From the NCBI RefSeq assembly GCF_036417845.1, contig NC_090015.1:1-64000 (forward strand): 64,000 nt of DNA. Reading direction: 5' to 3'. Below the pieces are notes generated by a model that did no database searches, was not told the DNA's origin, and saw only the letters and a list, made by a program, of their open reading frames with translations. Position numbers and translations under genes: made by a program. Below are positions 841 through 55,900 of this stretch, in pieces. The stretch's first letter is position 1. The number at the start of each line of letters is the position of its first letter. Source of the stretch: Apteryx mantelli. Its lineage: Eukaryota.

Positions 841-908
841 TACGGGGCGGGTGGGGGGTCCCTCACTCCCCCCCACCCCGTGGTGGCACCGCGGCGGTGA
901 CGGCGCAG

Positions 909-20949: not shown

Positions 20950-21080
20950 TGGGGACGCCGTTGGGGACACGGGGGACGCGGCGGGGCGGCGGCGCGACCG
21001 CACGCGGGCCGTCACCTTCCGCGTGCCCCACAACGCCGCCATGCAGCTCTACGACTACCGGGAGCGGCGGGCGCGGTGAG
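20950..21080 (+). other. Copy of the exon-8 3' end plus donor (…[35 protein letters not shown]|gtgagcgggg), inside the intron-8 satellite
   Basis: About 125 nt identical to 19445-19575, including the gtgagc donor, but lacking the 5' two-thirds of the exon. Confidence 0.85.
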
Positions 21081-23444
21081 CGGGGACGTTGGGGACATCG
21101 GGGACATCGGGGAGGTTGGGGGCATCAGGGACATCTGGGACGTGGAGGACATCAGAGATGTTGGGGGTGTCAGGGATGTCGGGGACATTGGGGACATCAG
21201 GGATGTTGGAGACATCTGGGACATGGAGGACATCAGAGACGTTGGGGATGTTGGGGACGTCGGGGACATCGGGGGTGTTGGGGACGTCGGGGAGGTTGGG
21301 GGCGTCAGGGACATCTGGGACCTGGAGGACATCAGAGACGTTGGGAATATTGGGGATGTTGGGGACATCTGGGACGTGGAGAACATCAGAGACATTGGGG
21401 ATGTTGGGGACATGGGGGACATTGGGGACATCAGGGACATGGAGGACATCAGGGACATTGGGGATGTTGGGGATGTTGGGGACATCTGGGACATGGAGGA
21501 CATCAGGGACGTTGGGGATGGTGGGGACGTTGGGGACATCTGGGACATGGAGGACATCAGGGATGCTGGGGACATTGGGGAGGTTGGGGATGTTGGGGAC
21601 ATCTGGGACATGGAGGACATCAGGGACATTGGGGCTGTCGGGGATGTCAGGGATGTTGGGGACGTTGGGGGCGTTGGGGACATGTGGGACATGGAGGACA
21701 GCAGAGACGTTGGGGATGTTGGGGACGTTAAGGGGCATCAGGGACATCAGGGACATGGAGGACATCAGAGACGGGGATGTTGGGGACATTGGAGGTGTCG
21801 GGGACATCTGGGACATGGAGGACATCAGAGATGTTGGGGACATTGGGGAGGTTGGGGATGTTGGGAACGTTGGGGACATCAGGGACATTGGGGACATCTG
21901 GGACCTGGAGAACATCAGAGACGTTGGGAATATTGGGGACGTCGGGGACATCTGGGATCTGGAGGACATCAGAGACGTTGGAGATGTTGGGGGCGTTGGG
22001 GACATTGGAGACATGGAGGACATCAGGGACGTTGGGGACATTGGGGATGTTGGGAACATGGAGGACATCAGGGACATTGGGGCTGTTGGGGACGTTGGGG
22101 ATGTCAGGGACGTTGGGGACATCTGGGACCTGGAGGACATCAGAGACGTTGGGGATGTTGGGGACATTGGGGACATGGAGGACATCAGAGATGGGGATGT
22201 TGGGGACATTGGGGACATCTGGGACATGGAGGACATCAGAGACGTTGGGGATGTTGGGAGCATTGGGGACATGGAGGACATCAGGGACATTGGGGATGTT
22301 GGGGACATTAAGGGGCATCAGGGACATCAGGGACTTGGAGGACATCAGAGACGTTGGGGACGTTGGGGGCGTCAGGGACGTCGGGGACATGGAGGACATC
22401 AGGGACGTTGGGGATGTTGGGGACATCAGGGACGTTGGGGACATCTGGGACACGGAGGACATCAGAGACGGGGACATTGGGGATGTCAGGGACATTGGGG
22501 ACATCTGGGACACAGAGGACATCAGGGACGTTGGGGACATCGGGGTCGTTGGGGACATCTGGGACGTGGAGGACATCAGGGACGTTGGGGATGTTGGGAG
22601 CATTGGGGACATGGAGGACATCAGGGACATTGGGCCTGTTGGGGACGTTGGGGACGTTGGGGACATCTGGGACATGGAGGACATCAGGGACGTTGGGGAT
22701 GTTGGGGACATTGGAGGTGTTGGGGACATCTGGGACATGGAGGACATCAGAGACGGGGACATTGGGGATGTTGGGGACGTTGGGGACATCAGGGACATGG
22801 AGGACATCAGGGACGTTGGGATGTTGGGGGCATTGGGGACATCGGGGACATGGAGAACATCAGAGACGTTGGGGACATTGGGGACGTTGGGGACATCGGG
22901 GACACAGAGGACATCAGGGACGTTGGGGATGTTGGGGACGTTGGGGACATCTGGGACGTGGAGGACATCAGGGACGTTGGGGATGTTGGGGACATCAGGG
23001 ACGTTGGGGACATCTGGGACACGGAGGACATCAGAGATGGGGACATTGGGGATGTCAGGGACATTGGGGACATCTGGGACACAGAGGACATCAGGGACGT
23101 TGGGGACGTCGGGGGCGTCAGGGACATCTGGGACATGGAGGACATCAGAGACGGGGATGGTGGGGACGTTGGGGATGTTGGAGACATCTGGGACATGGAT
23201 GGCATCAGAGACAGGGACATTGGGGACATCTGGGACATGGAGGACATCTGAGACGTTGGGGATGTTGGGGACATCAGGGACATTGGGGATGTTGGGGACG
23301 TTGAGGACATCGGGGACATCAGGGACATCTGGGACATGGAGGACATCAGGGACATTGGGGCTGTCGGGGATGTTGGGGACGTTGGGGGTGTTGGGGACAT
23401 GTGGGACATGGAGGACATCAGAGATGGGGATGGCGGGGACGTTG

Positions 23445-23575
23445 GGGACGCCGTTGGGGACACGGGGGACGCGGCGGGGCGGCGGCGCAACCGCACGCGG
23501 GCCGTCACCTTCCGCGTGCCCCACAACGCCGCCATGCAGCTCTACGACTACCGGGAGCGGCAGGCGCGGTGAGCG
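23445..23575 (+). other. Second copy of the exon-8 3' end plus donor, carrying two substitutions (D>N and R>Q)
   Basis: Same 125-nt block with cgcaaccgc and cggcaggcgcgg variants. The donor gtgagc lies at 23569. Confidence 0.85.
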
Positions 23576-24399
23576 GGGACGTTGGGGACATCGGGGACAT
23601 CGGGGAGGTTGGGGGCATCAGGGACATCTGGGACGTGGAGGACATCAGAGATGTTGGGGGTGTCAGGGATGTCGGGGACATTGGGGACATCAGGGATGTT
23701 GGAGACATCTGGGACATGGAGGACATCAGGGACGTTGGGGATGTTGGGGACATTGGGATGTCGGGGACATTGGGGACATCTGGGACATGGAGGACATCAG
23801 AGACAGGGATGTTGGGGACCTCAAGGATATCTGGGACCTGGAGGACATCAGAGATGTTGGGGATGTTGGGGATGTTGGGGGCGTTGGGGACATCTGGGAC
23901 ATGGAGAACATCAGGGACATTGGGGATGTTGGGGGCTTTGGGGATATGGAGGACATCAGAGACGTTGGGAACGTTGGGGATGTTGGGGACATCTGGGACG
24001 TGGAGGACATCAGGGACGGGGACGTTGGGGACGTTGGGGACATCTGGGACATGGAGGACATCAGAGACATTGGGCCTGTTGGGGACGTTGGGGATGTTGG
24101 GGACATCTGGGACATGGAGGACATCAGAGACATTGGGCCTGTTGGGGACATTAAGGGGCATCAGGGACATCAGGGACTTGGAGGACATCAGAGACGTTGG
24201 GGACGTTGGGGGCGTTGGGGACATCGGGGACTTGGAGGACATCAGAGATGTTGGGGATGTCGGGGACGTTGGGGATGTTGGGGACATCTGGGACAGGGAC
24301 ATCTGGGACACGGAGGACATCAGGGACGTTGGGGACGTTGGGGACGTCGGGGCTGTTGGGGATGTCGGGGACGTTGAGGACATCATGGATGTCCATGGC

Positions 24400-27300
24400 G
24401 CTGGTGCCACCGGGGGGGGGGGCACGTGTGTGGGTGCGTGTGACCTGCGTGTGGGTGCGTGTGGGGGCACGTGACACCCACGTGACACCCGTGTGGGTGC
24501 GTGTGACACACATGTAGGTGCGTGTGACCTGCGTGTGGGTGCGTGTGACACCCGTGTTGGTGCGCGTGACGTGTGTGGGTGCCTATAACACACGTGTGGG
24601 TGCGTGACATTGCGTGTGGGTGCGTGTGACGTGTGTGGGTGCGTGTGACCCACGTGTGGGTGCATGTGGGTGCGTGTGGGGGGGCGTGACACCTGTGTGA
24701 CACCCGTGTGGGCGCGTGTGACCCGTGTGTGGGTCTGTGTGGGTGCGTGTGACACCCGTGTGGGTGCGTGTGGGTGTGTGTGACCCACATGTGGGTGTGT
24801 GCGACCTGTGTGTGGGTGCGTGTGGCCCGCGTGTGGGCCCGTGTGACACCCGTGGGTGCGTGTGACACGCATGTGGATGCGTGTAGGTGCGTGTGACCCA
24901 CGTGTGGGGGCATGTGGGGGTGCGTGACACCTGTGTGACACCCGTGTGGGTGCGTGTGACACACGTGTGGGTGCGTGTGACACATGTGGGTGCGTGTGAC
25001 CCATGTGTGTGTGCGTGTGACACACGTGGGTGCGTGTGAAATGCATGTGGCTGCGTGTGACCCACGTGTGGGTGTGTGTGACACACGTGTGGGTGCGTGT
25101 GGGTGCGTGTGACACCCATGTGGGTGCGTGTGACCTGCGTGTGGGTGCATGTGACCCACGTGTGGGTGCGTGTGACACGTGTGGGTGCGTGTGGGTGCAT
25201 GTGACACCCATGTGGGTGCGTGTGACCCGTGTGTGGGCCTGTGTGACCACTGTGGGTGCGTGTGACACACGTGTGGGTGCGTGTGACGTGGGAGTGGGTG
25301 CGTGTGACCTGCGTGTGGGTGCGTGTGACCCACGTGTGGGTGTGTGTGACCCACATGTGGCTGCATGTGACACCCGTGTGGGTGTGTGTGACCCACGTGT
25401 GGGGGCATGTGACCCACGTGTGGGGGCGTGTGGGGGCGCATGACACCTGTGTGACACCCGTGTGGGTGTGTGTGACCTGTGTGTGGGTGCGTGTGGGTGC
25501 GTGTGACACGTGTGGGTGTGTGTGACACCCGTGTGGGTGCGTGTGACCTGCGTGTGGGTGGGTGGGACACACGTGCGGGTGCGTGTAAAATGCGTGTGGG
25601 TGCGTGTGACACACATGTGGGGGTGTGTGACACGTGTGTGGGTGCGTGTGGGTGCGTGTGACACCTATGTGGGTGCATGTGACCTGCGTGTGGGTGCGTG
25701 TGACACGTGTGTGGGTGTGTGTGGGTGCGTGGGACCCGCATGTGGGTGCGTGTGACCTGCGTGTGGGCCTGTGTGACCCCCGTGGGCGCGTGTAACACGC
25801 GTGTGGGTGCGTGTAACACGTGTGTGGGTGCGTGTGACCTGCGTGTGGGCCCATGTGACCCCTGTGGACGCGTGTAACACACGTGTGGGTGCGTGTGGGT
25901 GTGTGTGACCCACGTGTGGGTGCGTGTGACCTGCGTGTGGGCCTGTGTGACCCCCGTGGGTGTGTGCAACATGCGTGTGGGGGCGTGTGACCCACGTGTG
26001 GGGGCGTGTGGGGGCGCATGACACCTGTGTGACACCCGTGTGGGTGCGTGTGACCTGTGTGTGGGTGCGTGTGGGTGTGTGTGACACGTGTGGGTGTGCG
26101 TGACCCACGTGTGGGTGTGTGTGACCTGCGTGTGGGTGGGTGGGACACACGTGGGTGCGTGTAAAATGCGTGTGGGTGCGTGTGACCCGCGTGTGGGTGT
26201 GTGACACGTGTGTGGGTGCGTGTGGGTGCGTGTGACACCCATGTGGGTGCGTGTGACCTGCGTGTGGGTGCATGTGACCCGCGTGTGGGTGCGTGTGACC
26301 TGCGTGTGGGCCCGTGTGACCCCCGTGGGTGCGTGTAACACGCGTGTGGGTGCGTGTGGGTGCGGGTGACCCACGTGTGGGTGCGTGTGACCTGCGTGTG
26401 GGCCTGTGTGACCCCCGTGGGTGGGTGCAACACGCGTGTGGGTGCGTGTGATGCGCGTGTGGCTGCGTGTGACCCCTGTGTGGCTGCGTGTGGGGACGCG
26501 TGACACCCGTGGGACCCCCGTGGGGTGACCCCCGTGTCCCCCGTGTCCCCACGCAGGGTGGTGCTGGGCCCCGAGCTGGCGCTGCTGGCGCCCGGCGAGC
26601 AGCCCACGGCGCCGTCCCTCTCCGGGGGGGGACACGTGTGACCCCCGCGTGGGTGCGTGTGACACCTGTGGGGTGACACGTCACGCGTGTGGGTGCGTGT
26701 GACATGTGTATGGGTGCGTGGGAGACGTGTGGGTGCGTGTGACCCGTATGTGGGTGTGGGTGACCTGCGTGTGGGTCCATGTGACACACACGTGGGTGCG
26801 TGTGACATGCGTGTGGGTGCGTGTGACGTGGGAGTGGGTGCGTGTGACCTGCGTGTGGGTGCGTGTGACCCACGTGTGGGGGTGTGTGGGGGCGCATGAC
26901 ACCTGTGTGACACCCGTGTGGGTGCGTGTGACCTGCGTGTGGGTGCGTGTGGGTGTGTGTGACACGTGTGGGTGTGCGTGACCCACGTGTGGGTGTGTGT
27001 GACCTGCGTGTGGGTGGGTGGGACACACGTGCGGGTGCGTGTGAAATGCGTGTGGGTGCGTGTGACCCACATGTGGGGGTGTGTGACGCGTGTGTGGGTG
27101 CGTGTGGGTGCGTGTGACACCTATGTGGGTGCATGTGACCTGCGTGTGGGGGCGTGTGACCCGCGTGTGGGTGCGTGACATGTGTGTGGGTGTGTGTGGG
27201 TGCGTGGGACCCGCGTGTGGGTGCGTGTGACCTGCGTGTGGGCCTGTGTGACCCCCGTGGGTGCGTGTAACACGCGTGTGGGTGCGTGTAACACGTGTGT

Positions 27301-28160
27301 GGGTGCGTGTGACCTGCGTGTGGGCCCGTGTGACCCCCGTGGGCGCGTGTAACACACGTGTGGGTGCGTGTGGGTGCGTGTGACCCATGTGTGGGTGCGT
27401 GTGACCGGCGCGTGGGTGCGTGTGGGTGCGTGTGACGTGGGTGTGGGTGCGTGTGGGTGCATGTGACATGCATGTGGGTGCGCGTGACCCCCGTGGGGTG
27501 ACCCCCGTGTCCCCCCCACCCACGCAAGGTGGTGCTGGGCCCCGAGCTGGCGCTGCTGGCGCCCGGCGAGCAGCCCACGGCGCCGTCCCTCTCCGGGGTG
27601 GGACGCGTGTGACCCCCGTGGGGACCCGCGTGGGTGCGTGTGACCCCCGTGGGGTGACCCCCGTGTCCCCCCCACCCACGCAGGGTGGTGCTGGGCCCCG
27701 AGCTGGCGCTGCTGGCGCCCGGCGAGCAGCCCACGGTGCTGTCCCTCTCCGGGGGGGGACGCGTGTGACCCCCGCGTGGGTGCGTGTGGGTGCGTGTGAC
27801 CCCCGTGGGGATGCGTGTGACCCCCGTGGGGTGACCCCCGTGTCCCCCGTGTCCCCACGCAGGGTGGTGCTGGGCCCCGAGCTGGCGCTGCTGGCGCCCG
27901 GCGAGCAGCCCACGGCGCCGTCCCTCTCCGGGGTGGGACACGTGTGACCCCCGTGGGGACCCGCGTGGGTGCGTGTGACCCCCGTGGGGTGACCCCCGTG
28001 TCCCCCGTGTCCCCACGCAGGGTGGTGCTGGGCCCCGAGCTGGCGCTGCTGGCGCCCGGCGAGCAGCCCACGGCGCCGTCCCTCTCCGGGGGGGGACGCG
28101 TGTGACCCCCGCGTGGGTGCGTGTGACCCCCGTGGGGTGACCCCCGTGTCCCCCGTGTCC
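24400..28160. repeat. GT-rich repeat of 9-30-bp units (gtgtgggtgcgtgtgacccacgtgtgggtgcgtgtgac), carrying the exon-9 junction copies near its 3' end
   Basis: Direct reading. The alternating purine-pyrimidine GT/GC character is evident. Confidence 0.9.
26530..28100 (+). other. Five truncated copies of the exon-9 acceptor plus its 5' 80 nt, starting at 26556, 27529, 27684, 27863 and 28021; they lie upstream of the real exon at 28169
   Basis: The string ccccacgcag|ggtggtgctgggccccgagctggcgctgctggcgcccggcgagcagcccacgg(c/t)gc(c/t)gtccctctccgggg recurs, with each copy diverging after ctctccgggg. The second copy has caag in place of cag. Confidence 0.85.
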
Positions 28161-31640: not shown

Positions 31641-33150
31641 AATGTCCCCAGAGCTCGAACCCCGTGATCTGCCCGGCCCTGTTCAGCTTCAGCGAGGCCC
31701 CATGTCCCCAATGTCCCCAATGTCCCCGACGTCCCCAATGTCCCTGATGTCCCCAATGCCCCCAATATCTCCAATGTCCCCGATGTCCCCAATGTCCCTG
31801 ATGTCCCTGATGTCCCCAATGTCCCCGACGTCCCCATCGTCCCTGATGTCCCCAATGCCCCCAATATCTCCAATGTCCCCGATGTCCCCAATGTCCCTGA
31901 TGTCCCTGATGTCCCCAACGTCCCTGATGTCCCCAATGCCCCCAATATCTCCAATGTCCCCGATGTCCCCAATGTCCCTGATGTCCCCGATGTCCCCAGA
32001 ACTCCAACCGGGTGATCTGCTCGGCCGTGTTCGGCTTCAACGAGGCCCCATGTCCCTAATGTCCCGTAATGTCCCCAATGCCCCGTAATGTCCCCGATGT
32101 CCCCAACATCCTCAATGTCCCCAATGTCCCCAACGTCCCCGATGTCCCCGACGTCCCCGCCGTCCCCAGAACTCCAACCGGGTGATCTGCTCGGCCGTGT
32201 TCGGCTTCGATGAGGCCCCGTGTCCATAATGTCCCGTAATGTCCCCAATGTCCCCAACATCCTCAATGTCCCCAATGTCCCCGATGTCCCTGATGTCCCT
32301 GACGTCCCCGCCGTCCCCAGAACTCCAACCGGGTGATCTGCTCGGCCACGTTCGGCTTCGACGAGGCCCCGTGTCCATAATGTCCCGTAATGTCCCCAAT
32401 GTCCCCAAGGTCCCCGACATCCCCAATGTCCCCGATGTCCTGACATCCCCGATGTCCCCAATGTCCCCGATGTCCCCAGAACTCCAACTGGGTGATCTGC
32501 TCGGCTGTGTTCGGCTTCGATGAGGCCCCGTGTCCCTAATGTCCTGTAATGTCCCCGATGTCCCAACGTCCCCAACGTCCCCAATGTCCTCAATGTCCCC
32601 AACATCCCTGATGTCCCCAACGTCCCTGATGTCCCCAGAACTCCAACCGGGTGATCTGCTCAGCCGTGTTCGGCTTCGACGAGGCCCCGTGTCCATAATG
32701 TCCCATGATGTCCCCAACATCCCTGATGGCCCTGATGTCCCCGACGTCCCTGATGTCCCCGATGTCCCTGATGTCCCCAACGTCCCTGCTGTCCCCAGAA
32801 CTCCAACCGGGTGATCTGCTCGGCCGTGTTCGGCTTCAACGAGGCCCCGTGTCCCTAATGTCCCATGATGTCCCCGATGTCCCCAACGTCCCTGATGTCC
32901 CCGATGTCCCCGACGTCCCCAACGTCCCCAGAACTCCAACCGGGTGATCTGCTCGGCCGTGTTCGGCTTCGACAAGACCCTATGTCCCTAATGTCCCGTA
33001 ATGTCCCCGATGTCCCGTAATGTCCCTGCTGTCCCCAACATCCTCAATGTCCCCAACGTCTCCGATGTCCCCGACATCCCTGATGTCCCCGATGTCCCCA
33101 GAACTCCAACCGGGTGATCTGCTCGGCCGTGTTCGGCTTCGACGAGGCCC
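31640..33150 (+). other. Nine copies of the exon-11 acceptor plus its 5' 50 nt (ccccag|aactccaaccgggtgatctgctcggccgtgttcggcttcgacgag), starting at 31652 (degenerate), 32000, 32170, 32321, 32480, 32639, 32799, 32932 and 33102
   Basis: Near-identical strings recur every 133-170 bp inside a higher-order repeat of 15-21-bp 'gatgtcccc' units. The copies continue gccccgtgtcc, whereas the real exon at 33253 continues ggcggccgcctgcgc. Confidence 0.85.
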
Positions 33151-37311: not shown

Positions 37312-37438
37312 CGCGGCGGTGGAGAGCACGGGGGCGGCGCGGGCGGAGGCGCAGGCCCGGGCGGAGGCCGCCCGCATCGAGGGCGAAGCCGCCATCCTGC
37401 AGGCCAAGCTCAAGGCCGAGGCCGCCGCCATCGAGGCG
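37312..37438 (+). CDS. MVP: MVP coding exon (c-[42 protein letters not shown]); AG 37310-37311, donor GT 37439-37440
   Basis: Matches MVP '[42 protein letters not shown]'. Confidence 0.88.
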
Positions 37439-37439
37439 G

Positions 37440-38580
37440 TGCGTGCGGGGCGGGCGGGGGGCGGGGCTTGGCGGCGCGGGGGGCGGGGCTTGGCGGCGGG
37501 GGGGGCGACCGCGTGGCGGAGGGGGGGCGGGCAGGGTGGAGGGGGGGGGTGTCTGAGCGCGGCCACGCCCCCAGGGGGCGGGGCTGCCGCACGCGCAGGC
37601 GCGGTAGCCGCGGGGGGGGGGTGAAGGGGAGCGCGCAGGCGCAGTAGCCGCGGAAAGGGGGGGCGGCCAGGTGAGCGCGCAGGCGCAGTAGCCGCCGTGG
37701 GGGGGGCCGAGTGCGCAGGCGCGGTTGCCCGGGGGGGGGGCAAGGGGAGCGCGGAGGCGCAGTAGCCGCGGTGGGGGGGGGGGGGTTGAGTCGAGCGCGC
37801 AGGCGCAGAAGCCGCGGGGGGGGGGGGGTGAGGCGAGCGCGCAGGCGCAGTAGCGACGGTGGGGGGCGGCCAGAAGAGCGCGCAGGCGCAATAGCCGCGG
37901 GGGGGGGGGGTTGAGGGGAGCGCGCAGGCGCAGTAGCCACGTGGGGGGGGTTGAGGCGAGCGCGCAGGCGCAGTAGCCGCGGGGGGGTGGCAAGGGGAGC
38001 GCGCAGGCGCAGTAGCCGCGGTGGGGGGGGGGTTGAGTCGAGCGCGCAGGCGCAGAAGCCGCGGGGGGGGGGGTGAGGCGAGCGCGCAGGCGCAGTAGCG
38101 ACGGTGGGGGGGCGGCCAGAAGAGCGCGCAGGCGCAGTAGCCGCGGGGGGGGGGGGTTGAGGCGAGCGCGCAGGCGCAGTAGCCGCGGGGGGGGGGGGCA
38201 GGGCGGCAAGGGGAGCGCGCAGGCGCAGTAGCCACGTGGGGGGTTGAGGGGAGCGCGCAGGCGCAGTAGCCGGGGGGGTGAGGGGAGCGCGCAGGCGCAG
38301 TTGCCGCGGGGGGGGGGCTGAGGCGAGCACGCAGGCGCAGTAGCCGCGGAGGGGGGGGGGGGGGGGCGGCAAGGCGAGCGCGCAGGCGCAGTAGCTGCGG
38401 TGGGGGGGTGAGGCGAGCGCGCAGGCGCAGTAGCCGCGGGGGGGGGCTGAGGCGAGCGCGCAGGCGCAGTAGCCGCGGGGGGGGGGGAGAAGCGGCGGCC
38501 AGGGGAGAGCGCAGGCGCGGCAGGTTCGCCGGGCGCGGGGGGGGGGGGGGGAGGTGTCCCGCGGCGGGCGGGGCCGTGCC
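37440..38580. repeat. Tandem repeat of about 40-45-bp units (tgaggcgagcgcgcaggcgcagtagccgcg + G8-12) with a 240-bp higher-order period. The core GAGCGCGCAGGCGCAG matches the exon-14 5' region
   Basis: 37741-37980 equals 37981-38220. Every unit carries a G-run of 8-12 nt. Confidence 0.9.
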
Positions 38581-38612
38581 TGACGGCGGCCCCGCCCCCC
38601 CCCACCGCGCAG

Positions 38613-38802
38613 GAGGCGGAGCTGGCGCGGCTGGAGCGCGCGCAGGCGCAGGAGCTGCGGGTGCGGCGGGCGCGGGCGGAGGCGGAGGCGGCGCACGCGC
38701 AGGCCATGGCCGAGGTGGAGGGGGGGGCGCGTGCGCGACGTGGCCGCCGCCCTCGGCCCTGACGTCATCCGCGACATCGCGCGCGCCGGGCCCGAGCTCC
38801 AG
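38613..38802 (+). CDS. MVP: MVP coding exon (EAELARLERAQAQELRVRRARAEAEAAHAQAMAEVEGG[fs]RVRDVAAALGPDVIRDIARAGPELQ); AG 38611-38612, donor GT 38803-38804. Apparent +1 frameshift in the G7 run at 38721-38727
   Basis: Matches MVP '[63 protein letters not shown]'. The upstream frame (phase from 38613) and the downstream frame (from 38731) differ by one nucleotide across a 7-G run. Confidence 0.7.
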
Positions 38803-38804
38803 GT

Positions 38805-39420
38805 GGGCGGGGCCTCTGCGCGTGCGCGGGGGGGGGAACCGCGCGGTGGGGGGGCGGGGCCTGCGCGGTGGGGGGCGGGGCCATGGGGGGGTTGCCCCGG
38901 GGGTGGGGTCGCGGGGGGGTTGGGGTCCCAATGGGGGAGGGGCCCCAAAGGTGGTGGGCGGGACCTGGAGGGGGCGGGGTCTCCGTGGGTGGGGGCGTGG
39001 CCCTGGCGGGGGTGGGCGGGCCAAGAAGGGGGGGTCTCCCCACAGGAGCAGGGTCCAAGTGGGCTGGGCGGGGCCTCGGTGGGGGCGGGGCCTGAAGGGG
39101 AGTGGGTGGAGCACGAAGGGGGCACCCAATGGGGGTGGGGCCTCGAGGGGGGTCCCCAGGGGAGTGGGCGGGGCCTCGAGGCAGAGGTGGGGCCCGATGG
39201 GGGCGGGGCCTCCAAGGAGAGTGGGGCCTTGAAGGGGAGGGGCTCCCTCTGAGGGGCGTGACTTCTACTTGGGGGCGGGGCCAGGGGCAGCTCGCTCTCC
39301 CCCAGGGAGGGCGGGGGAGGCCGCCGGGGCGGGAAAGAGGGGAGGGGCGTGGCCCGTGGCTGGTGGGTGTGGCCTGAGGGGTGTGGCCCGAGGAGGGGGC
39401 GTGGCCTGAGAGGGGGCGTG
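38805..39420. repeat. Degenerate GC-rich repeat (gggcggggcctcgaggg / ggggcgtggcc) in MVP intron 14
   Basis: Direct reading. Confidence 0.6.
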
Positions 39421-43989: not shown

Positions 43990-46900
43990 AAAAATGACGT
44001 CAGGGGACCCAGGCGTCCGGGAGGGACCCAGGCGTCCGGGCAGGGACCCGGGTGTCCAGGGGACCCGGGTGTTTGGTGGCCTCGTGGCCACCATCTCCCC
44101 TGGTTTCACTCTACATCTGGGTCATCTTCAAGGGACCCAGGCGTCCGGGGAGACTCGTGTCACCTCTAGAGGGACCAGGCGTCCGGGAGGGGCCCAGGCG
44201 TCCGGGGAGTCTCGCGTCACCTCTAGGGGGACCCGGGCGTCCGGGAGGGGCCCAGGCGTCCGGGGAGTCTCGCGTCACCTCTAGGGGGACCCGGGCGTCC
44301 GGGAGGGGCCCAGGCGTCCGGGGAGCCTCGCGTCACCTCTAGGGGACCCGGGCGTCCGGGAGGGGCCCAGGCGTCCGGGGAGTCTCGCGTCACCTCTAGG
44401 GGGACCCGGGCGTCCGGGAGGGGCCCAGGCGTCCGGGGAGTCTCGCGTCACCTCCAGGGGGACCCGGGCGTCCGGGAGGGGCCCAGGCGTCCGGGGAGCC
44501 TCGCATCACCTCTAGGGGGACCCGGGCGTCCGGGAGGGGCCCAGGCGTCCGGGGAGTCTCGCGTCACCTCTAGAGGGACCCGGGCGTCCGGGAGGGGCCC
44601 AGGCGTCCGGGGAGTCTCGCGTCACCTCTAGAGGGACCCGGGCGTCCGGGAGGGGCCCAGGCGTCCGGGGAGTCTCGCGTCACCTCTAGGGGCACCCGGG
44701 CGTCCGGGAGGGGCCCAGGCGTCCGGGGAGTCTCGCGTCACCTCTAGGGGGACCCGGGCGTCCGGGAGGGGCCCAGGCGTCCGGGGAGTCTCGCGTCGCC
44801 TCTAGGGGGACCCGGGCGTCCGGGAGGGGCCCAGGCGTCCGGGGAGTCTCGCGTCACCTCTAGGGGGACCCGGGCGTCCGGGAGGGGCCCAGGCGTCCGG
44901 GGAGTCTCGCGTCACCTCTAGGGGGACCCGGGCGTCCGGGAGGGGCCCAGGCGTCCGGGGAGTCTCGCGTCACCTCTAGGGGGACCCGGGCGTGCTGGAG
45001 GGGCCCAGGCGTCCGGGGAGTCTCGCGTCGCCTCTAGGGGGACCCGGGCGTCCGGGAGGGGCCCAGGCGTCCGGGGAGTCTCGCGTCGCCTCTAGGGGGA
45101 CCCGGGCGTCCGGGAGGGGCCCAGGCGTCCGGGGAGCCTCGCGTCACCTCTAGGGGGACCCGGGCGTCCGGGAGGGGCCCAGGCGTCCGGGGAGCCTCGT
45201 GTCACCTCTAGGGGGGCCCGGGCGTCCGGGAGGGGCCCAGGCGTCCGGGGAGTCTCGCGTCACCTCTAGGGGGACCCGGGCGTCCGGGAGGGGCCCAGGC
45301 GTCCGGGGAGTCTCCTGTCACCTCTAGGGGCACCCGGGCGTCCGGGAGGGGCCCAGGCGTCCGGGGAGTCTCGCGTCACCTCTAGGGGACCCGGGCGTGC
45401 GGGAGGGGCCCAGGCGTCCGGGGAGTCTCGCGTCACCTCTAGGGGGACCCGGGCGTCCGGGAGGGGCCCAGGCGTCCGGGGAGCCTCGCGTCACCTCTAG
45501 GGGGACCCGGGCGTCCGGGAGGGGCCCAGGCGTCCGGGGAGTCTCGCGTCACCTCTAGAGGGACCCGGGCGTCCGGGAGGGGCCCAGGCGTCCGGGGAGC
45601 CTCGCGTCACCTCTAGAGGGACCCGGGCGTCCGGGAGGGGCCCAGGCGTCCGGGGAGTCTCGCGTCACCTCTAGGGGGACCCGGGCGTCCGGGAGGGGCC
45701 CAGGCGTCCGGGGAGTCTCGCGTCACCTCTAGGGGGACCCGGGCGTCCGGGAGGGGCCCAGGCGTCCGGGGAGTCTCGCGTCGCCTCTAGGGGGACCCGG
45801 GCGTCCGGGAGGGGCCCAGGCGTCCGGGGAGTCTCGCGTCACCTCTAGGGGGACCCGGGCGTCCGGGAGGGGCCCAGGCGTCCGGGGAGTCTCGCGTCAC
45901 CTCTAGGAGACCCGGGCGTCCGGGAGGGGCCCAGGCGTCCGGGGAGTCTCGCGTCACCTCTAGGGGGACCCGGGCGTCCGGGAGGGGCCCAGGCGTCCGA
46001 GGAGTCTGGCGTCACCTCTAGGGGGACCCGGGCGTCCGGGAGGGGCCCAGGCGTCCGGGGAGTCTCGCGTCACCTCTAGGGGGACCCGGGCGTCCGGGAG
46101 GGGCCCAGGCGTCCGGGGAGTCTCGCGTCACCTCTAGGGGGACCCGGGCGTCCGGGAGGGGCCCAGGCGTCCGGGGAGTCTCGCGTCACCTCTAGGGGGA
46201 CCCGGGCGTCCGGGAGGGGCCCAGGCGTCCGGGGAGTCTCGCGTCACCTCTAGAGGGACCCAGGTGTCCGGGAGGGGCCCAGGCGTCCGGGGAGTCTCGC
46301 GTCGCCTCTAGGGGGACCCGGGCGTCCGGGAGGGGCCCAGGCGTCCGGGGAGTCTCGCGTCACCTCTAGGGGGACCCGGGCGTCCGGGAGGGGCCCAGGC
46401 GTCCGAGGAGTCTGGCGTCACCTCTAGGGGGACCCGGGCGTCCGGGAGGGGCCCAGGCGTCCGGGGAGTCTCGCGTCACCTCTAGGGGGACCCGGGCGTC
46501 CGGGAGGGGCCCAGGCGTCCGGGGAGTCTCGCGTCACCTCTAGGAGACCCGGGCGTCCGGGAGGGGCCCAGGCGTCCGGGGAGTCTCGCGTCACCTCTAG
46601 AGGGACCCAGGCGTGCGGGAGGGGCCCAGGCGTCCGGGGAGTCTCGCGTCACCTCTAGAGGGACCCAGGCGTGCGGGAGGGGCCCAGGCGTCCGGGGAGT
46701 CTCGCGTCACCTCTAGGGGGACCCGGGCGTCCGGGAGGGGCCCAGGCGTCCGGGGAGTCTCGCGTCACCTCTAGGGGGACCCAGGTGTCCGAGAGGGGCC
46801 CAGGCGTCCGGGGAGTCTCGCGTCACCTTTACGGGGACCCAGGAGTCCGGGAGGGGCCCAGGCGTCCGGGGAGTCTCGCGTCGCCTCTAGGGGGACCCGG

Positions 46901-49900
46901 GTGTCCGGGAGGGGCCCAGGCGTCCGGGGAGGGGCCCAGGCGTCCGGGGAGTCTCGCGTCACCTCTAGGGGGACCCGGGCGTCCGGGAGGGGCCCAGGCG
47001 TCCGGGGAGTCTCGCGTCACCTCTAGGGGACCCGGGCGTCCGGGAGGGGCCCAGGCGTCTGGGGAGCCTCGTGTCACCTCTAGAGGGGCCCAGGCGTCCG
47101 GGGAGTCTGGCGTCACCTCTAGGGGGACCCGGGCGTCCGGGAGGGGCCCAGGCGTCTGGGGAGCCTCGTGTCACCTCTAGAGGGGCCCAGGCGTCCGGGG
47201 AGTCTGGCGTCACCTCTAGGGGGACCCGGGCGTCCGGGAGGGGCCCAGGCGTCTGGGGAGCCTCGTGTCACCTCTAGAGGGGCCCAGGCGTCCGGGGAGT
47301 CTGGCGTCACCTCTAGGGGGACCCGGGCGTCCGGGAGGGGCCCAGGCGTCCGGGGGGTCTCGCGTCACCTCTAGAGGGGCCCAGGCGTCCGGGGAGTCTG
47401 GCGTCACCTCTAGGGGGACCCGGGCGTCCGGGAGGGGCCCAGGCGTCTGGGGAGCCTCGTGTCACCTCTAGAGGGGCCCAGGCGTCCGGGGAGTCTCGCG
47501 TCACCTCTAGAGGGACCCGGGCGTCCGGGAGGGGCCCAGGCGTCCGGGGAGCCTCGCGTCACCTCTAGGGGGACCCGGGCGTGCGGGAGGGGCCCAGGCG
47601 TCCGGGGAGTCTCGTGTCACCTCTAGGGGGACCCAAGTGTCCGGGAGGGGCCCAGGCGTCCGGGGAGTCTCGCGTCACCTCTAGGGGGACCCGGGCGTGC
47701 GGGAGGGGCCCAGGCGTCCGGGGAGTCTCGCGTCACCTCTAGGGGGACCCGGGCGTGCGGGAGGGGCCCAGGCGTCCGGGGAGTCTCGTGTCACCTCTAG
47801 GGGGACCCGGGCGTCCGGGAGGGGCCCAGGCGTCCGGGGAGTCTCGCGTCACCTCTAGAGGGACCCGGGCGTCCGGGAGGGGCCCAGGCGTCCGGGGAGT
47901 CTCGTGTCACCTCTAGGGGGACCCGGGCGTCCGGGAGGGGCCCAGGCGTCCGGGGAGTCTCGCGTCACCTCTAGGGGGACCCGGGCGTCCGGGAGGGGCC
48001 CAGGCGTCCGGGGAGCCTCGCGTCACCTCTAGGGGGACCCGGGCGTCCGGGAGGGGCCCAGGCGTCCGGGGAGTCTCGCGTCACCTCTAGGGGGACCCGG
48101 GCGTCCGGGAGGGGCCCAGGCGTCCGGGGAGTCTCGCGTCACCTCTGGGGGGACCCGGGCGTCCGGGAGGGGCCCAGGCGTCCGGGGAGTCTCGCGTCAC
48201 CTCTAGAGGGGCCCAGGCGTCCGGGGAGTCTCGCGTCACCTCTGGGGGGACCCGGGCGTCCGGGAGGGGCCCAGGCGTCCGGGGAGTCTCGCGTCACCTC
48301 TAGGGGGACCCGGGCGTCCGGGAGGGGCCCAGGCGTCCGGGGAGCCTCGCGTCACCTCTAGGGGGACCCGGGCGTCCGGGAGGGGCCCAGGCGTCCGGGG
48401 AGTCTCGCGTCACCTCTAGGGGGACCCAGGCGTCCGGGAGGGGCCCAGGCGTCCGGGGAGTCTCGCGTCACCTCTAGGGGGACCCGGGCGTCCGGGAGGG
48501 GCCCAGGCGTCCGGGGAGTCTCGCGTCACCTCTAGGGGGACCCGGGCGTCCGGGAGGGGCCCAGGCGTCAGGGGAGTCTGGCGTCACCTCTAGGGGGACC
48601 CGGGCGTCCGCGAGGGGCCCAGGCGTCCGGGGAGCCTCGCGTCACCTCTAGGGGGACCCGGGCGTCCGGGAGGGGCCCAGGCGTCCGGGGAGTCTCGCGT
48701 CACCTCTAGGGGGACCCGGGCGTCCGGGAGGGGCCCAGGCGTCCGGGGAGTCTCGCGTCGCCTCTACGGGGACCCGGGCGTCCGGGAGGGGCCCAGGCGT
48801 CCGGGGAGTCTCGCGTCACCTCTAGAGGGACCCGGGCGTCCGGGAGGGGCCCAGGCGTCCGGGGAGTCTCGCGTCACCTCTAGGGGGACCCGGGCGTCCG
48901 GGAGGGGCCCAGGCGTCCGGGGAGCCTCGCGTCACCTCTAGGGGGACCCGGGCGTCCGGGAGGGGCCCAGGCGTCCGGGGAGTCTCGCGTCACCTCTAGG
49001 GGGACCCGGGCGTCCGGGAGGGGCCCAGGCGTCCGGGGAGTCTCGCGTCACCTCTAGGGGGACCCGGGCGTCCGGGAGGGGCCCAGGCGTCCGGGGAGCC
49101 TCGCGTCGCCTCTAGGGGGACCCGGGCGTCCGGGAGGGGCCCAGGCGTCCGGGGAGTCTCGCGTCACCTCTAGAGGGACCCGGGCGTCCGCGAGGGGCCC
49201 AGGCGTCCGGGGAGTCTCGCGTCGCCTCTAGGGGACCCGGGCGTCCGGGAGGGGCCCAGGCGTCCGGGGAGCCTCGCGTCACCTCTAGGGGGACCCGGGC
49301 GTCCGGGAGGGGCCCAGGCGTCCGGGGAGTCTCGCGTCACCTCTAGGGGGACCCGGGCGTCCGGGAGGGGCCCAGGCGTCCGGGGAGTCTCGCGTCACCT
49401 CTAGGGGGGCCCAGGCGTCCGGGGAGTCTCGCGTCACCTCTAGGGGGACCCGGGCGTCCGGGAGGGGCCCAGGCGTCCGGGGAGTCTCGCGTCACCTCTA
49501 GGGGGGCCCAGGCGTCCGGGGAGTCTCGCGTCACCTCTAGGGGGACCCGGGCGTCCGGGAGGGGCCCAGGCGTCCGGGGAGTCTCGCGTCACCTCTAGGG
49601 GGACCCAGGTTTCCGGGAGGGGCCCAGGCGTCCGGGGAGTCTCGCGTCACCTCTAGGGGGACCCGGGCGTCCGGGAGGGGCCCAGGCGTCCGGGGCATCT
49701 CGCGTCACCTCTAGGGGGACCCGGGCGTGCGGGAGGGGCCCAGGCGTCCGGGGAGTCTCGCGTCACCTCTAGGGGGACCCGGGCGTCCGGGAGGGGCCCA
49801 GGCGTCCGGGGAGTCTCGCGTCACCTCTAGGGGACCCGGGCGTCCGGGAGGGGCCCAGGCGTCCGGGGAGCCTCGCGTCACCTCTAGGGGGGCCCGGGCG

Positions 49901-52900
49901 TCCGGGAGGGGCCCAGGCGTCCGGGGAGTCTCGCGTCACCTCTAGGGGGACCCGGGCGTCCGGGAGGGGCCCAGGCGTCCGGGGAGTCTCGCGTCACCTC
50001 TAGGGGGACCCGGGCGTCCGGGAGGGGCCCAGGCGTCCGGGGAGTCTCGCGTCACCTCTGGGGGGACCCGGGCGTGCGGGAGGGGCCCAGGCGTCCGGGG
50101 AGTCTCGCGTCACCTCTAGGGGGACCCGGGCGTCCGGGAGGGGCCCAGGCGTCCGGGGAGTCTCGCGTCACCTCTAGGGGGACCCGGGCGTCCGAGGGGG
50201 GCCCAGGCGTCCGGGGAGTCTCGCGTCACCTCTAGGGGGACCCGGGCGTCCGGGAGGGGCCCAGGCGTCCGGGGAGCCTCGCGTCACCTCTAGGGGGACC
50301 CGGGCGTCCGGGAGGGGCCCAGGCGTCCGGGGAGTCTCGCGTCACCTCTAGGGGGACCCGGGCGTCCGGGAGGGGCCCAGGCGTCCGGGGAGCCTCGCGT
50401 CACCTCTAGGGGGACCCGGGCGTCCGGGAGGGGCCCAGGCGTCCGGGGAGTCTCGCGTCACCTCTAGGGGGACCCGGGCGTCCGGGAGGGGCCCAGGCGT
50501 CCGGGGAGCCTCGCGTCACCTCTAGAGGGGCCAGGCGTCCGCGGAGTCTCGCGTCACCTCTAGGGGACCCAGGTGTCCGGGGAGTCTCGTGTCATCTCTA
50601 GGGGACCCAGGTGTCCGGGGAGTCTCGTGTCACCTCTAGGGGGACCCGGGCGTCCGGGAGGGGCCCAGGCGTCCGCGGAGTCTCGCGTCACCTCTAGGGG
50701 ACCCAGGTGTCCGGGGAGTCTCGTGTCATCTCTAGGGGACCCAGGTGTCCGGGGAGTCTCGCGTCACCTCTAGGGGGACCCGGGCGTCCGGGAGGGGCCC
50801 AGGCGTCCGGGGAGTCTCGCGTCATCTCTAGGGGACCCAGGTGTCCGGGGAGTCTCGTGTCACCTCTAGGGGGACCCGGGCGTCCGGGAGGGGCCCAGGC
50901 GTCCGGGGAGTCTCGCGTCACCTCTAGAGGGACCAGGTGTCCGTGAGGGGCCCAGGTGTCCGGGAGGGGCCCAGGCGTCCGGGGAGCCTCGCGTCACCTC
51001 TAGGGGGACCCGGGCGTCCGGGAGGGGCCCAGGCGTCCGGGGAGTCTCGCGTCACCTCTAGAGGGACCCGGGCGTCCGGGAGGGGCCCAGGCGTCCGGGG
51101 AGTCTCGCGTCACCTCTAGGGGGACCCGGGCGTCCGGGAGGGGCCCAGGCGTCCGGGGAGTCTCGCGTCACCTCTAGGGGGACCCGGGCGTCCGGGAGGG
51201 GCCCAGGCGTCCGGGGAGTCTGGCGTCACCTCTACGGGGACCCGGGCGTCCGGGAGGGGCCCAGGCGTCCGGGGAGTCTCGCGTCACCTCTAGAGGGACC
51301 CGGGCGTCCGGGAGGGGCCCAGGCGTCCGGGGAGTCTCGCGTCACCTCTAGGGGGACCCGGGCGTCCGCGAGGGGCCCAGGCGTCCGGGGAGCCTCGCGT
51401 CACCTCTAGGGGGACCCGGGCGTCCGGGAGGGGCCCAGGCGTCCGGGGAGTCTCGCGTCACCTCTAGGGGGACCCGGGCGTCCGGGAGGGGCCCAGGCGT
51501 CCGGGGAGTCTCGCGTCACCTCTAGGGGGACCCGGGCGTCCGGGAGGGGCCCAGGCGTCCGGGGAGTCTCGCGTCACCTCTAGGGGGACCCGGGCGTCCG
51601 GGAGGGGCCCAGGCGTCCGGGGAGTCTCGCGTCACCTCTAGGGGGACCCGGGCGTCCGGGAGGGGCCCAGGCGTCCGGGGAGCCTCGCGTCACCTCTAGG
51701 GGGGCCCGGGTGTCCGGGAGGGGCCCAGGCGTCCGGGGAGCCTCGCGTCACCTCTGAGGGGACCCGGGCGTGCGGGAGGGGCCCAGGCGTCCGGGGAGCC
51801 TCGCGTCACCTCTAGGGGGACCCGGGCGTCTGGGAGGGGCCCAGGCGTCCGGGGAGTCTCGCGTCACCTCTAGGGGGACCCGGGCGTCCGGGAGGGGCCC
51901 AGGCGTCCGGGGAGTCTCGCGTCACCTCTAGGGGGACCCGGGCGTCCGGGAGGGGCCCAGGCGTCCGGGGAGTCTCGCGTCACCTCTAGGGGGACCCGGG
52001 CGTCCGGGAGGGGCCCAGGCGTCCGGGGAGTCTTGCGTCACCTCTAGGGGGACCCGGGCGTCCGGGAGGGGCCCAGGCGTCCGGGGAGCCTCGCGTCGCC
52101 TCTAGGGGGACCCGGGCGTCCGGGAGGGGCCCAGGCGTCCGGGGAGCCTCGCGTCACCTCTAGGGGCACCCGGGCGTCCGGGAGGGGCCCAGGCGTCCGG
52201 GGAGTCTCGCGTCACCTCTAGAGGGACCCGGGCGTCCGCGAGGGGCCCAGGCGTCCGGGGAGTCTCGCGTCGCCTCTAGGGGACCCGGGCGTCCGGGAGG
52301 GGCCCAGGCGTCCGGGGAGTCTCGCGTCACCTCTAGGGGGACCCGGGCGTCCGGGAGGGGCCCAGGCGTCCGGGGAGTCTCGCGTCACCTCTAGGGGGGC
52401 CCAGGCGTCCGGGGAGTCTCGCGTCACCTCTAGGGGGACCCGGGCGTCCGGGAGGGGCCCAGGCGTCCGGGGAGTCTCCTGTCACCTCTAGGGGGACCCG
52501 GGCGTCCGGGAGGGGCCCAGGCGTCCGGGGAGTCTCGCGTCACCTCTAGGGGGACCCGGGCGTCCGGGAGGGGCCCAGGCGTCCGGGGAGTCTCGCGTCA
52601 CCTCTAGGGGGACCCGGGCGTCTGGGAGGGGCCCAGGCGTCCGGGGAGTCTCGCGTCACCTCTAGGGGGCCCAGGCGTCCGGGAGGGGCCCAGGCGTCCG
52701 GGGAGTCTCGCGTCACCTCTAGGGGGACCCGGGCGTCCGGGAGGGGCCCAGGCGTCCGGGGAGTCTCGCGTCACCTCTAGGGGGACCCGGGCGTCCGGGA
52801 GGGGCCCAGGCGTCCGGGGAGTCTCGCGTCACCTCTAGAGGGACCCGGGCGTCCGGGAGGGGCCCAGGCGTCCGGGCAGTCTCGCGTCACCTCTAGGGGG

Positions 52901-55900
52901 ACCCGGGCGTCCGGGAGGGGCCCAGGCGTCCGGGGAGTCTCGCGTCGCCTCTAGGGGGACCCGGGCGTCCGGGAGGGGCCCAGGCGTCCGGGGAGTCTCG
53001 CGTCACCTCTAAGGGGACCCGGGCGTCCGCGAGGGGCCCAGGTGTCCGGGGAGTCTCGCGTCACCTCTGGGGGGACCCGGGCGTCCGGGAGGGGCCCAGG
53101 CGTCCGGGGAGTCTCGCGTCACCTCTAGGGGGACCCGGGCGTCCGGGAGGGGCCCAGGCGTCCGGGGAGTCTCGCGTCACCTCTAGGGGGACCCGGGCGT
53201 CCGGGAGGGGCCCAGGCGTCCGGGGAGTCTCGCGTCACCTCTAGGGGGGCCCAGGCGTCCGGGGAGTCTCGCGTCACCTCTAGGGGGACCCGGGCGTCCG
53301 GGAGGGGCCCAGGCGTCCGGGGAGTCTCCTGTCACCTCTAGGGGGACCCAGGTTTCCGGGAGGGGCCCAGGCGTCCGGGGAGTCTCGCGTCACCTCTAGG
53401 GGGACCCGGGCGTCCGGGAGGGGCCCAGGCGTCCGGGGCATCTCGCGTCACCTCTAGGGGGACCCGGGCGTGCGGGAGGGGCCCAGGCGTCCGGGGAGTC
53501 TCGCGTCACCTCTAGGGGACCCGGGCGTCCGGGAGGGGCCCAGGCGTCCGGGGAGTCTCGCGTCACCTCTAGGGGGACCCGGGCGTGCGGGAGGGGCCCA
53601 GGCGTCCGGGGAGTCTCGCGTCACCTCTAGGGGGCCCAGGCGTCCGGGAGGGGCCCAGGCGTCCGGGGAGTCTCGCGTCACCTCTAGGGGGACCCGGGCG
53701 TCCGGGAGGGGCCCAGGCGTCCGGGGAGTCTCGCGTCACCTCTAGGGGGACCCGGGCGTCCGGGAGGGGCCCAGGCGTCCGGGGAGTCTCGCGTCACCTC
53801 TAGGGGACCCGGGCGTCCGGGAGGGGCCCAGGCGTCCGGGGAGTCTCGCGTCACCTCTAGGGGGACCCGGGCGTCCGGGAGGGGCCCAGGCGTCCGGGGA
53901 GTCTCGCGTCACCTCTAGGGGGGCCCGGGCGTCCGGGAGGGGCCCAGGCGTCCGGGGAGTCTCGCGTCACCTCTAGGGGACCCGGGCGTCTGGGAGGGGC
54001 CCAGGTGTCCGGGGAGGGGCCCAGGCGTCCGGGGAGTCTCGCGTCACCTCTAGGGGACCCGGGCGTCCGGGAGGGGCCCAGGCGTCCGGGGAGCCTCGCG
54101 TCACCTCTAGGGGGACCCGGGCGTCCGGGAGGGGCCCAGGCGTCCGGGGAGTCTCGCGTCACCTCTAGGGGGACCCGGGCGTCCGGGAGGGGCCCAGGCG
54201 TCCGGGGAGTCTCGCGTCACCTCTAGGGGGACCCGGGCGTCCGGGAGGGGCCCAGGCGTCCGGGGAGTCTCGCGTCACCTCTAGGGGGACCCGGGCGTCC
54301 GGGAGGGGCCCAGGCGTCCGGGGAGTCTCGCGTCACCTCTAGGGGGACCCGGGCGTCCGGGAGGGGCCCAGGCGTCCGGGGAGTCTCGCGTCACCTCCGG
54401 GGGGACCCGGGCGTGCGGGAGGGGCCCAGGCGTCCGGGGAGTCTCGCGTCACCTCTAGGGAGACCCGGGCGTCCGGGAGGGGCCCAGGCGTCCGGGGAGT
54501 CTCGCGTCACCTCTAGGGGGACCCGGGCGTCCGGGAGGGGCCCCAGGCGTCCGGGGAGTCTCGCGTCACCTCTGGGGGGACCCGGGCGTCCGGGAGGGGC
54601 CCAGGCGTCCGGGGAGTCTCGCGTCACCTCTAGGGGGACCCGGGCGTCCGGGAGGGGCCCAGGCGTCCGGGGAGTCTCGCGTCACCTCTAGGGGGACCCG
54701 GGCGTCCGGGAGGGGCCCAGGCGTCCGGGGAGTCTCGCGTCACCTCTAGGGGGACCCGGGCGTCCGGGAGGGGCCCAGGCGTCCGGGGAGCCTCGCGTCA
54801 CCTCTAGGGGACCCGGGCGTCCGGGAGGGGCCCAGGCGTCCGGGGAGTCTGGCGTCACCTCTAGGGGGACCCGGGCGTCCGGGAGGGGCCCAGGCGTCCG
54901 GGGAGTCTCGCGTCACCTCTAGGGGGACCCGGGCGTGCGGGAGGGGCCCAGGCGTCCGGGGAGTCTCGCGTCACCTCTAGGGGGACCCGGGCGTCCGGGA
55001 GGGGCCCAGGCGTCCGGGGAGTCTCGCGTCACCTCTAGGGGGACCCGGGCGTCCGCGAGGGGCCCAGGCGTCCGGGGAGTCTCGCGTCACCTCTAGGGGA
55101 CCCGGGCGTCCGGGAGGGGCCCAGGCGTCCGGGGAGTCTGGCGTCACCTCTAGGGGGACCCGGGCGTCCGGGAGGGGCCCAGGCGTCCGGGGAGTCTCGC
55201 GTCACCTCTAGGGGGACCCGGGCGTCCGGGAGGGGCCCAGGCGTCCGGGGAGTCTCGCGTCACCTCTAGGGGGACCTAGGAGTCCGGGAGGGGCCCAGGC
55301 GTCCGGGGAGTCTCCTGTCACCTCTAGGGGGACCCGGGCGTCCGGGAGGGGCCCAGGCGTCCGGGCAGTCTCGCGTCACCTCTAGGGGGACCCGGGCGTC
55401 CGGGAGGGGCCCAGGCGTCCGGGGAGCCTCGCGTCACCTCTAGGGGGACCCGGGCGTGCGGGAGGGGCCCAGGCGTCCGGGGAGCCTCGCGTCACCTCTA
55501 GAGGGACCCGGGCGTCCGGGAGGGGCCCAGGCGTCCGGGGAGCCTCGCGTCACCTCTAGGGGACCCGGGCGTGCGGGAGGGGCCCAGGCGTCCGGGGAGT
55601 CTCGCGTCACCTCTAGGGGGACCCGGGCGTCCGGGAGGGGCCCAGGCGTCCGGGAGGGGCCCAGGCGTCCGGGGAGCCTCGCGGTCACCTCTAGGGGGAC
55701 CCGGGCGTCCGGGAGGGGCCCAGGCGTCCGGGGAGCCTCGCGTCACCTCTAGGGGGACCCGGGCGTCCGGGAGGGGCCCAGGCGTCCGGGGAGTCTCGCG
55801 TCACCTCTAGGGGGACCCGGGCGTCCGGGAGGGGCCCAGGCGTCCGGGGAGTCTCGCGTCACCTCTAGGGGGACCCGGGCGTCCGGGAGGGGCCCAGGCG

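Follow-up and report, generated by a model that had tools for sequence, protein, structure and literature searches.

The first 64,000 nucleotides of contig NC_090015.1 of the Apteryx mantelli assembly GCF_036417845.1 (positions 1 to 64,000, forward strand; hereafter the window, G+C = 69.5%) were analysed with respect to a G-rich tandem array in an intron of the major vault protein (MVP) gene. The gene was mapped on the + strand by tblastn with a human MVP sequence as query; this query is the basis of the exon map and aligned collinearly over 892–39590 as 15 exons, labelled a to o, the ends of which are approximate except for those of m and n. The residue numbering agrees with a search of the PDB, in which exons m and n, joined and with one base corrected, matched MVP residues 715–818 in solved vault structures (E = 2e-25). 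In the window, tblastn found no exon that would encode MVP residues 1 to ∼38; the gene may begin outside the window, or its 5' end may have diverged too far to be detected. The alignment upstream of exon a (window 1–912) meets an in-frame stop near 895–905. An earlier note on this DNA had placed the array in intron 13, ahead of exon 14; this holds if the count starts at the first visible MVP exon, but the exon that should precede it was not found.

The array-bearing intron m–n (37439–38612, + strand, 1174 nt) is covered to 88% by Tandem Repeats Finder. It is bounded on the 5' side by exon m (37312–37438, +), which encodes residues 713–755 of the cap-helix domain, ends in the donor GCG/GTGCGT (the slash marks the splice junction) and is 81–91% identical to its orthologues. 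The 3' end of the intron (38552–38612, +) is unique sequence with a C-rich polypyrimidine tract (pyrimidine fraction 0.80) and is homologous to the 3' end of the corresponding intron in L002, the closest relative compared. The true acceptor (cag/G) reads ccgcgcag/GAGGCGGAG, so that exon n starts at 38613. Exon n (38613–38802, +; residues 756–818) has 190 nt, compared with 189 nt in 8/8 orthologous contigs. An apparent +1 frameshift was located at a G8 run (38720–38727, +), where the tblastn alignment switches frame between 38720 and 38728 and the orthologue consensus reads GCCTCG. Exon o, which lies downstream of this site, is intact and conserved, so that the frameshift probably reflects a miscounted homopolymer in the assembly and not a pseudogene. 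A Pfam search with exons m and n gave just a sub-threshold OmpH match, which was disregarded, and Rfam at gathering thresholds gave zero matches in the window.

Tandem Repeats Finder described an array at 37592–38486 with a period of 42, 21.8 copies, 76% matches and 13% indels. When the units were anchored on their conserved core, the main minisatellite was resolved into 22 units (37591–38500, +) spaced by 35–52 bp, followed by a degenerate terminal unit (GAGAGCGCAGGCGCGGCAGGTTCGCC...; 38501–38551, +) with a G15 run at 38537–38551. The whole array (37591–38551, ∼0.95 kb) is on the coding strand and precedes the true acceptor; this bears out the tandem satellite that had been described at this place from the letters alone. 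The units have the consensus GAGGCGAGCGCGCAGGCGCAGTAGCCGCGG, after which come a G run of 6–16 and TT/TGA. A core 17-mer, GCGCAGGCGCAGTAGCC, is present with at most two mismatches in every unit; a 23rd match lies outside the array, in exon n, and the number of chance matches expected from window shuffles was 0.00. Some figures of the earlier note had to be revised: about 25 copies became about 22–23, and G8–12 runs do not occur in every unit, the longest run per unit being within 8–12 in just 12/22 units, below 8 in 7/22 and above 12 in 3/22. Nearly two thirds of the G runs of at least ten in the window (13/21) fall in this one intron. A separate G-rich mini-array with a 22-bp unit (GGCGGCGCGGGGGGCGGGGCTT; Tandem Repeats Finder, ∼4–5 copies) occupies the 5' end of the intron at 37445–37549 (+) and, in the array–exon control described below, showed no excess similarity to either flanking exon.

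The array contains a higher-order structure. Global alignment and lag analysis identified an internal block duplication (37748–38251, +) in which 37748–37997 and 37998–38251 are 89% identical overall, and the first four duplicated units (37748–37918 versus 37998–38164) differ by just three bases and by the lengths of their G runs; the duplication is recent. Tandem Repeats Finder also reported higher-order periods of 164 and 129. This order bears on the chance that a GC- and homopolymer-rich region was mis-assembled and has given rise to a spurious array or to a wrong array length. The error-like +1 frameshift in exon n and the G runs of 10–16, which are error-prone, would fit such an artefact, but unit substitutions in an ordered higher-order pattern are not what artefacts produce, the flanks are collinear with the orthologues and the same architecture fills all of the other introns. 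An artefactual array is hence considered highly improbable. The extra nucleotide of exon n, arising in the G8 run, does make homopolymer lengths in the region unreliable, and together with the G10–16 runs it flags a locus at which base-level assembly accuracy should not be trusted.

The age of the array was assessed using eight orthologous bird contigs, including Colinus virginianus (L001), four galliform-like contigs and L002, which were found via a protein search returning single-exon fragments with a best identity not above 78%. The orthologous intron m–n is 66 nt long in Colinus virginianus, 72 nt in the four galliform-like contigs and 151 nt in L002, and the range over all eight is 66–151 nt. 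The array unit is absent from all eight orthologous introns, and the 17-mer had no match in the eight fetched loci; a 23-mer of the array likewise had no match among JGI metagenome contigs. Since eight orthologues have introns this short and lack the unit, the array is lineage-specific. The exons of L002 are 82–94% identical to those of the window, and L002 shares older repeats with the window in introns k–l and l–m; since it lacks the m–n array, the latter must have arisen after the two lineages separated. In the window the mapped exons extend over 38.7 kb (913–39590), compared with 8.4 kb for the matching blocks in Colinus (L001 2434–10834). The L002 intron starts with GGAAGGGGGGGGCGGCCGGGA, which resembles the unit variant GGAAAGGGGGGGCGGCCAGGTGA at 37653–37675, and for this reason both the G run and, in some units, the CGGCCAG portion look ancestral and intronic.

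The organization of the intron was compared with the `sequence stuttering' described for genes of avian dot chromosomes, of which `exon stuttering' is a subset (Hron et al., 2026, Genome Biol Evol; PMC12954441). The repeats that fill the intron are imperfect and tandem, with a unit inside the published range of tens to hundreds of base pairs, the array is confined between conserved exons, and the motif is local, the 17-mer occurring elsewhere in the 64 kb just in exon n. By these features the array qualifies as intron stuttering, and it shares with the published cases an extremely GC-rich bird gene, introns that are almost all tandem repeat, intron-specific motifs and a local origin. Neither that paper nor its supplement names MVP. 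In the gene as a whole, tandem repeats cover 93% of the MVP intron sequence, with a motif that differs from intron to intron. The unit lengths cluster near multiples of ∼10 (10, 17–21, 29–31, 41–42, 50–52, 58–63), as has also been reported for zebra finch dot-chromosome introns.

The relation of the unit to exon n was then examined by alignment. The earlier note had derived the unit from the downstream exon on the strength of a shared 16-mer, GAGCGCGCAGGCGCAG; this word occurs in 17 copies in the array and is not found in exon n, which reads GAGCGCGCGCAGGCGCAG, with an extra GC. The longest exact word common to both is the 14-mer GCGCGCAGGCGCAG at 38638, within an array-like segment (38638–38669, +) that matches the consensus unit at 27/32 positions without gaps and unit 20 (38378–38400) at 22/23; with gaps, the similarity extends to about 38736. 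Exon n is the top match to the unit in the 64 kb on both strands (19.5, compared with 14.5 for the next match outside exon n), a score that was reached by 15/20000 codon shuffles of exon n and by 25/20000 dinucleotide shuffles. A gap-tolerant alignment of four tandem units with exon n scored 36.1, compared with 16.7 ± 3.5 for shuffles; 0/10000 codon shuffles reached it, and other MVP exons scored 6–15. As a control, 24 arrays were compared with both of their neighbouring exons. For unrelated pairs, z did not go beyond about ±1.6; the pairs standing out were all ones with evident sharing, namely exon h with array h–i (z = 10), j with j–k (6), m with l–m (4.5) and n with m–n (4.5). The similarity between unit and exon n appears from these comparisons to be beyond composition, and the shuffles speak against the explanation by chance or GC content that had been named as its possible refutation.

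Changes within the exon point the same way. Three GCGCNNGCGC decamers are present in exon n and zero in five orthologues; codon shuffles gave P(≥3) = 0.0011 for this gain. Eight GCGCAG hexamers lie outside the array in the window, three of them in exon n. The 35 substitutions in exon n on the lineage of the window raise its likeness to the array, which substitutions of the same spectrum placed at random sites did as strongly in 0/2000 trials with long gaps and in 12/2000 with standard gaps. It is on balance likely, with considerable doubt left, that common ancestry or sequence exchange links the core to exon n and that their resemblance is not fortuitous. The orthologous exon n of L002 is periodic at 36 nt, so that the array may echo an old periodicity of the exon.

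G/C transversions make up 19/35 of the differences between exon n and the five-orthologue consensus (14 from G to C and 5 from C to G), a spectrum that is unusual and that GC-biased conversion alone does not explain. Clustering of substitutions in exon n was considered as a sign of conversion and was dropped: a run of 4 among 35 changes in 189 nt is not rare, with an estimated probability of ∼0.2.

Taken with the anatomy and age of the array, these results favour a reading that we regard as reasonably probable: a young, lineage-specific GC-rich minisatellite that would have arisen through the local repeat instability of avian dot-chromosome genes. From a short ancestral intron of about 70–150 bp, a ∼42-bp segment would have been amplified in tandem, composed of the ancestral intronic G run and a roughly 30-nt core that is related to exon n, downstream, in its 5' portion with a cryptic periodicity. 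Growth would have proceeded by slippage in G-run length and by duplication of multi-unit blocks, consistent with unequal exchange. Replication slippage or template switching at G-quadruplex-prone DNA may have driven these events, and/or out-of-register meiotic exchange with gene conversion, in a region that is very rich in GC and recombines at a high rate; mechanisms of both kinds have been proposed for stuttering (PMC12954441). The array would be transcribed with the intron and spliced out, with no function needed, and is probably a neutral product of the instability. Stuttering is further defined by extensive variation of intron length among individuals; in the one haplotype analysed, indirect signs of recent change are the block duplication with its differing G runs and the absence of the array in related species.

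Several points weigh against this reading. Tandem amplification, a recent multi-unit duplication and lineage specificity are directly visible, whereas slippage, G-quadruplexes or recombination as the mechanism is something that we infer; the putative dot-chromosome location is likewise drawn solely from 16p11.2-type synteny (ALDOA and PPP4C, which lie on chicken chr38; PMC12954441) and from the repeat landscape. The match to the exon is short and of low complexity (Ala/Arg/Gln/Glu codons, about 82% GC). When the substitution test was repeated with sites held fixed and standard gaps, 556/2000 trials reached the observed value, which is not significant. A polarity test, in which derived exon sites matching the unit were counted, was uninformative, as its answer flipped with the sequence on which the alignment was based (16/18 versus 2/21), and so favours neither transfer from the exon into the array nor the reverse. 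In the published screen for exon stuttering (blastn-short, hits ≥20 nt, threshold 42.1 bits; PMC12954441), exon n gave 13 hits of at least 20 nt, of which seven reached 32.2 bits; the maximum of 38.2 bits (unit 20, 23 nt) lies above that of a shuffled control (34.2) and below the threshold. More than 90% of published cases abut an exon border and carry a splice site (PMC12954441), whereas here the first matching base is 38638 (position 26 of exon n), the match lies 24 nt within the exon, and the array units contain neither a splice site nor the C-rich acceptor region. The m–n array does resemble exon stuttering in that an intron next to a coding exon holds many direct tandem copies resembling part of it; as exon stuttering it is sub-threshold and atypical. 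A further difference is that exon n itself appears changed toward the repeat, whereas coding regions stay intact in the published stuttered genes (PMC12954441). The derivation of the unit from the exon, as first proposed, is thus retained as a similarity and not as a direction.

The same points lend themselves to a purely intronic origin, in which an ancestral G run and a de novo GC-rich core were amplified and the likeness to exon n came from GC and CpG composition and from the periodicity of its Ala, Gln and Arg codons. Besides the failure of the match by the published criteria, such an origin would agree with the intrinsic 36-nt periodicity of the exon, with the scores of 13.7–25 that were obtained in the same gap-tolerant alignment for orthologous exons n that never lay beside the array, and with the resemblance of the G run and CGGCCAG variants to the 5' end of the L002 intron. 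The first unit also carries an extra 30 nt (GAGCGCG-GCCACGCCCCCAGGGGGCGGGGCTGCCGCA-CGCGCAGG, 37556–37600) that could be an older, purely intronic form. Against it stand the codon shuffles, none of which reached the gapped score, the rank of exon n as top match on both strands of the window, the quiet behaviour of unrelated array–exon pairs, the gain of three decamers by exon n and the fact that exon-derived repeats are demonstrably common elsewhere in this gene. On this evidence a purely intronic origin is possible, though rather unlikely.

The exon-derived repeats in question were found at four other exon borders (b, h, i and k), which passed the published screen at 76–200 bits. The 5' 56 nt of exon b recur in four copies (3100–3155, 3608–3663, 4210–4265 and 5166–5221), the 3' 105 nt of exon h in two (20972–21076 and 23465–23569), the 5' 74 nt of exon i in five (26555–28092) and the 5' 58 nt of exon k in eight (31989–33147). 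The copies stand in tandem in the adjacent intron, are 93–100% identical to their exons over 51–105 nt and start within 3 nt of the exon edge. These borders are textbook exon stuttering, far clearer than the m–n array, and create many pseudo splice sites. Exon h shows a second kind of link: at 19435–19480 it contains 3–4 in-frame tandem copies of GGGGACRTY (Gly-Asp-Ile, Gly-Asp-Val, Gly-Asp-Asp...), and the same 9-bp motif forms a 4.8-kb array of ∼538 copies in intron h–i (19576–24383), which starts 6 nt past exon h. Exon h has 90 codons in the window, compared with 84 in Colinus.

The cases of exons n and h suggest that links between repeat motifs and the interior of exons are missed by the published border-based screen. 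The three GCGCNNGCGC decamers and the frameshift-prone G8 run in exon n, together with the GGGGACRTY copies in exon h, lead to a more far-reaching proposal, namely that stuttering here extends beyond the introns: sequence would pass between intronic arrays and the coding exons next to them, by non-allelic gene conversion or templated repair, and the protein would be remodelled in the process. We regard this as unlikely. If it were true, the exchange would provide a direct mechanism leading from the repeat instability of dot chromosomes to accelerated protein evolution and gene loss in birds, a connection that was left open in the original description (PMC12954441), and any sequence exchange behind the motif–exon links would bear on how fast dot-chromosome proteins evolve and how such genes are lost. 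Taken alone, the m–n array adds a further case of intron stuttering, probably a neutral one, to those known from bird genes of the extremely GC-rich class. Its value lies in being a well-resolved case: the short ancestral intron is known from eight orthologous contigs, so the array can be dated as lineage-specific, and it shows repeat growth by G-run slippage plus multi-unit block duplication.

The potential of the array for G-quadruplexes (G4) was evaluated on the coding strand. The G4Hunter mean over the array was 1.19, and 34% of 25-nt windows reached 1.5; just three canonical G4 motifs were found, because the G tracts are about 30 nt apart. Folding with ViennaRNA including G-quadruplex terms placed 13 G4 blocks within single long G runs and changed the folding energy from −394 to −608 kcal/mol. 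Introns i–j and n–o have G4Hunter means of 1.41 and 1.34, respectively; in six other introns the coding strand is rich in C. The predicted potential is thus high, as had been suggested, but it is typical of the neighbouring introns and not exceptional. Watson–Crick hairpins or cruciforms were rejected as a driver, since they showed no excess over shuffles (z = 0.66 and −1.29).

The human CEB1 minisatellite forms G-quadruplexes and is unstable when G4 unwinding is impaired. Minisatellites of the CEB1 type and the MVP array have in common a GC-rich unit of ∼40 bp, G tracts on one strand, internal block duplications and variation in tract length. The MVP array differs in having one long G homopolymer per unit instead of four spaced G triplets, in its intragenic position on the coding strand and in its few canonical motifs, with folding that is predicted only. 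A further parallel is offered by intronic satellite DNA and giant introns, for example those of Y-linked genes in Drosophila (Fingerhut and Yamashita, 2022, cited in PMC12954441), where satellite arrays are likewise transcribed within introns and need to be spliced out; those introns differ in extending over megabases rather than kilobases, and the MVP array would also differ in its euchromatic, GC-rich and gene-dense setting and in a unit that is locally derived, not a genome-wide satellite.

Splice-like signals were surveyed in the same region. The acceptor-like GCGCAG that had been noted in each copy is present twice per unit, giving 40 sites in the 1 kb that precedes the real acceptor, whose own end is likewise GCGCAG. 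Such repeated sites could in principle act as decoys and compete with the real acceptor. They have no polypyrimidine tract, however: a purine run lies upstream of each site, and the pyrimidine fraction at −22 to −3 has a mean of 0.31 and a maximum of 0.45, compared with 0.60–0.80 at the real acceptors that were located, with the single exception of the uncertain site of exon a (0.45). The donor-like GGTGAG sites are better splice-site mimics. The strongest, CAG/GTGAGC (37671–37679, +), scored 10.3 bits versus a real-donor median of 4.9 with an approximate 5' splice-site matrix, of which just the ranking is meaningful; four GGG/GTGAGG sites were found at 37828, 38073, 38278 and 38408 (+). The acceptor motif is therefore real, but the decoy idea that goes with it is unsupported and is considered extremely improbable.

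The core also contains GCGCAGGCGC, which fits the NRF1 consensus GCGCNTGCGC (PMC10810270) and is the reverse complement of the TFAM promoter site GCGCCTGCGC, so that 21 NRF1-type sites are predicted in the array. All 25 matches to the consensus in the window, on either strand, lie within 37593–38827 (1.24 kb); apart from those in the array they comprise three in exon n (38640, 38691 and 38727) and one in the next intron (38818). Two of the decamers in exon n, at 38691 and 38727, are mutually reverse-complementary and form a 10-bp inverted repeat with a 26-nt spacer within the exon. The array might on these grounds serve as an intronic enhancer or a protected CpG island, or its G runs as splicing enhancers or RNA G-quadruplexes. 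The concentration of sites, a CpG density of 134 per kb (compared with a window median of 69) and the 13 predicted G4 blocks in the pre-mRNA are compatible with such a role, but a function would have to be new, as the array is missing from all orthologues examined; unit number and G-run length look unconstrained, and each of the other introns has a different array, with no common motif or strand rule. A functional cis-element thus appears very unlikely, and a neutral product of local repeat instability is preferred.

Downstream of MVP, the window contains at least 20 kb of a satellite with a 58-bp unit (GGGGCCCAGGCGTCCGGGGAGTCTCGCGTCACCTCTAGGGGGACCCGGGCGTCCGGGA) and higher-order periods of 116 and 174 bp (44131–64000), which runs off the end of the window. 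In Colinus, its place is taken by a TLC-domain gene that lies ∼3 kb downstream of MVP.

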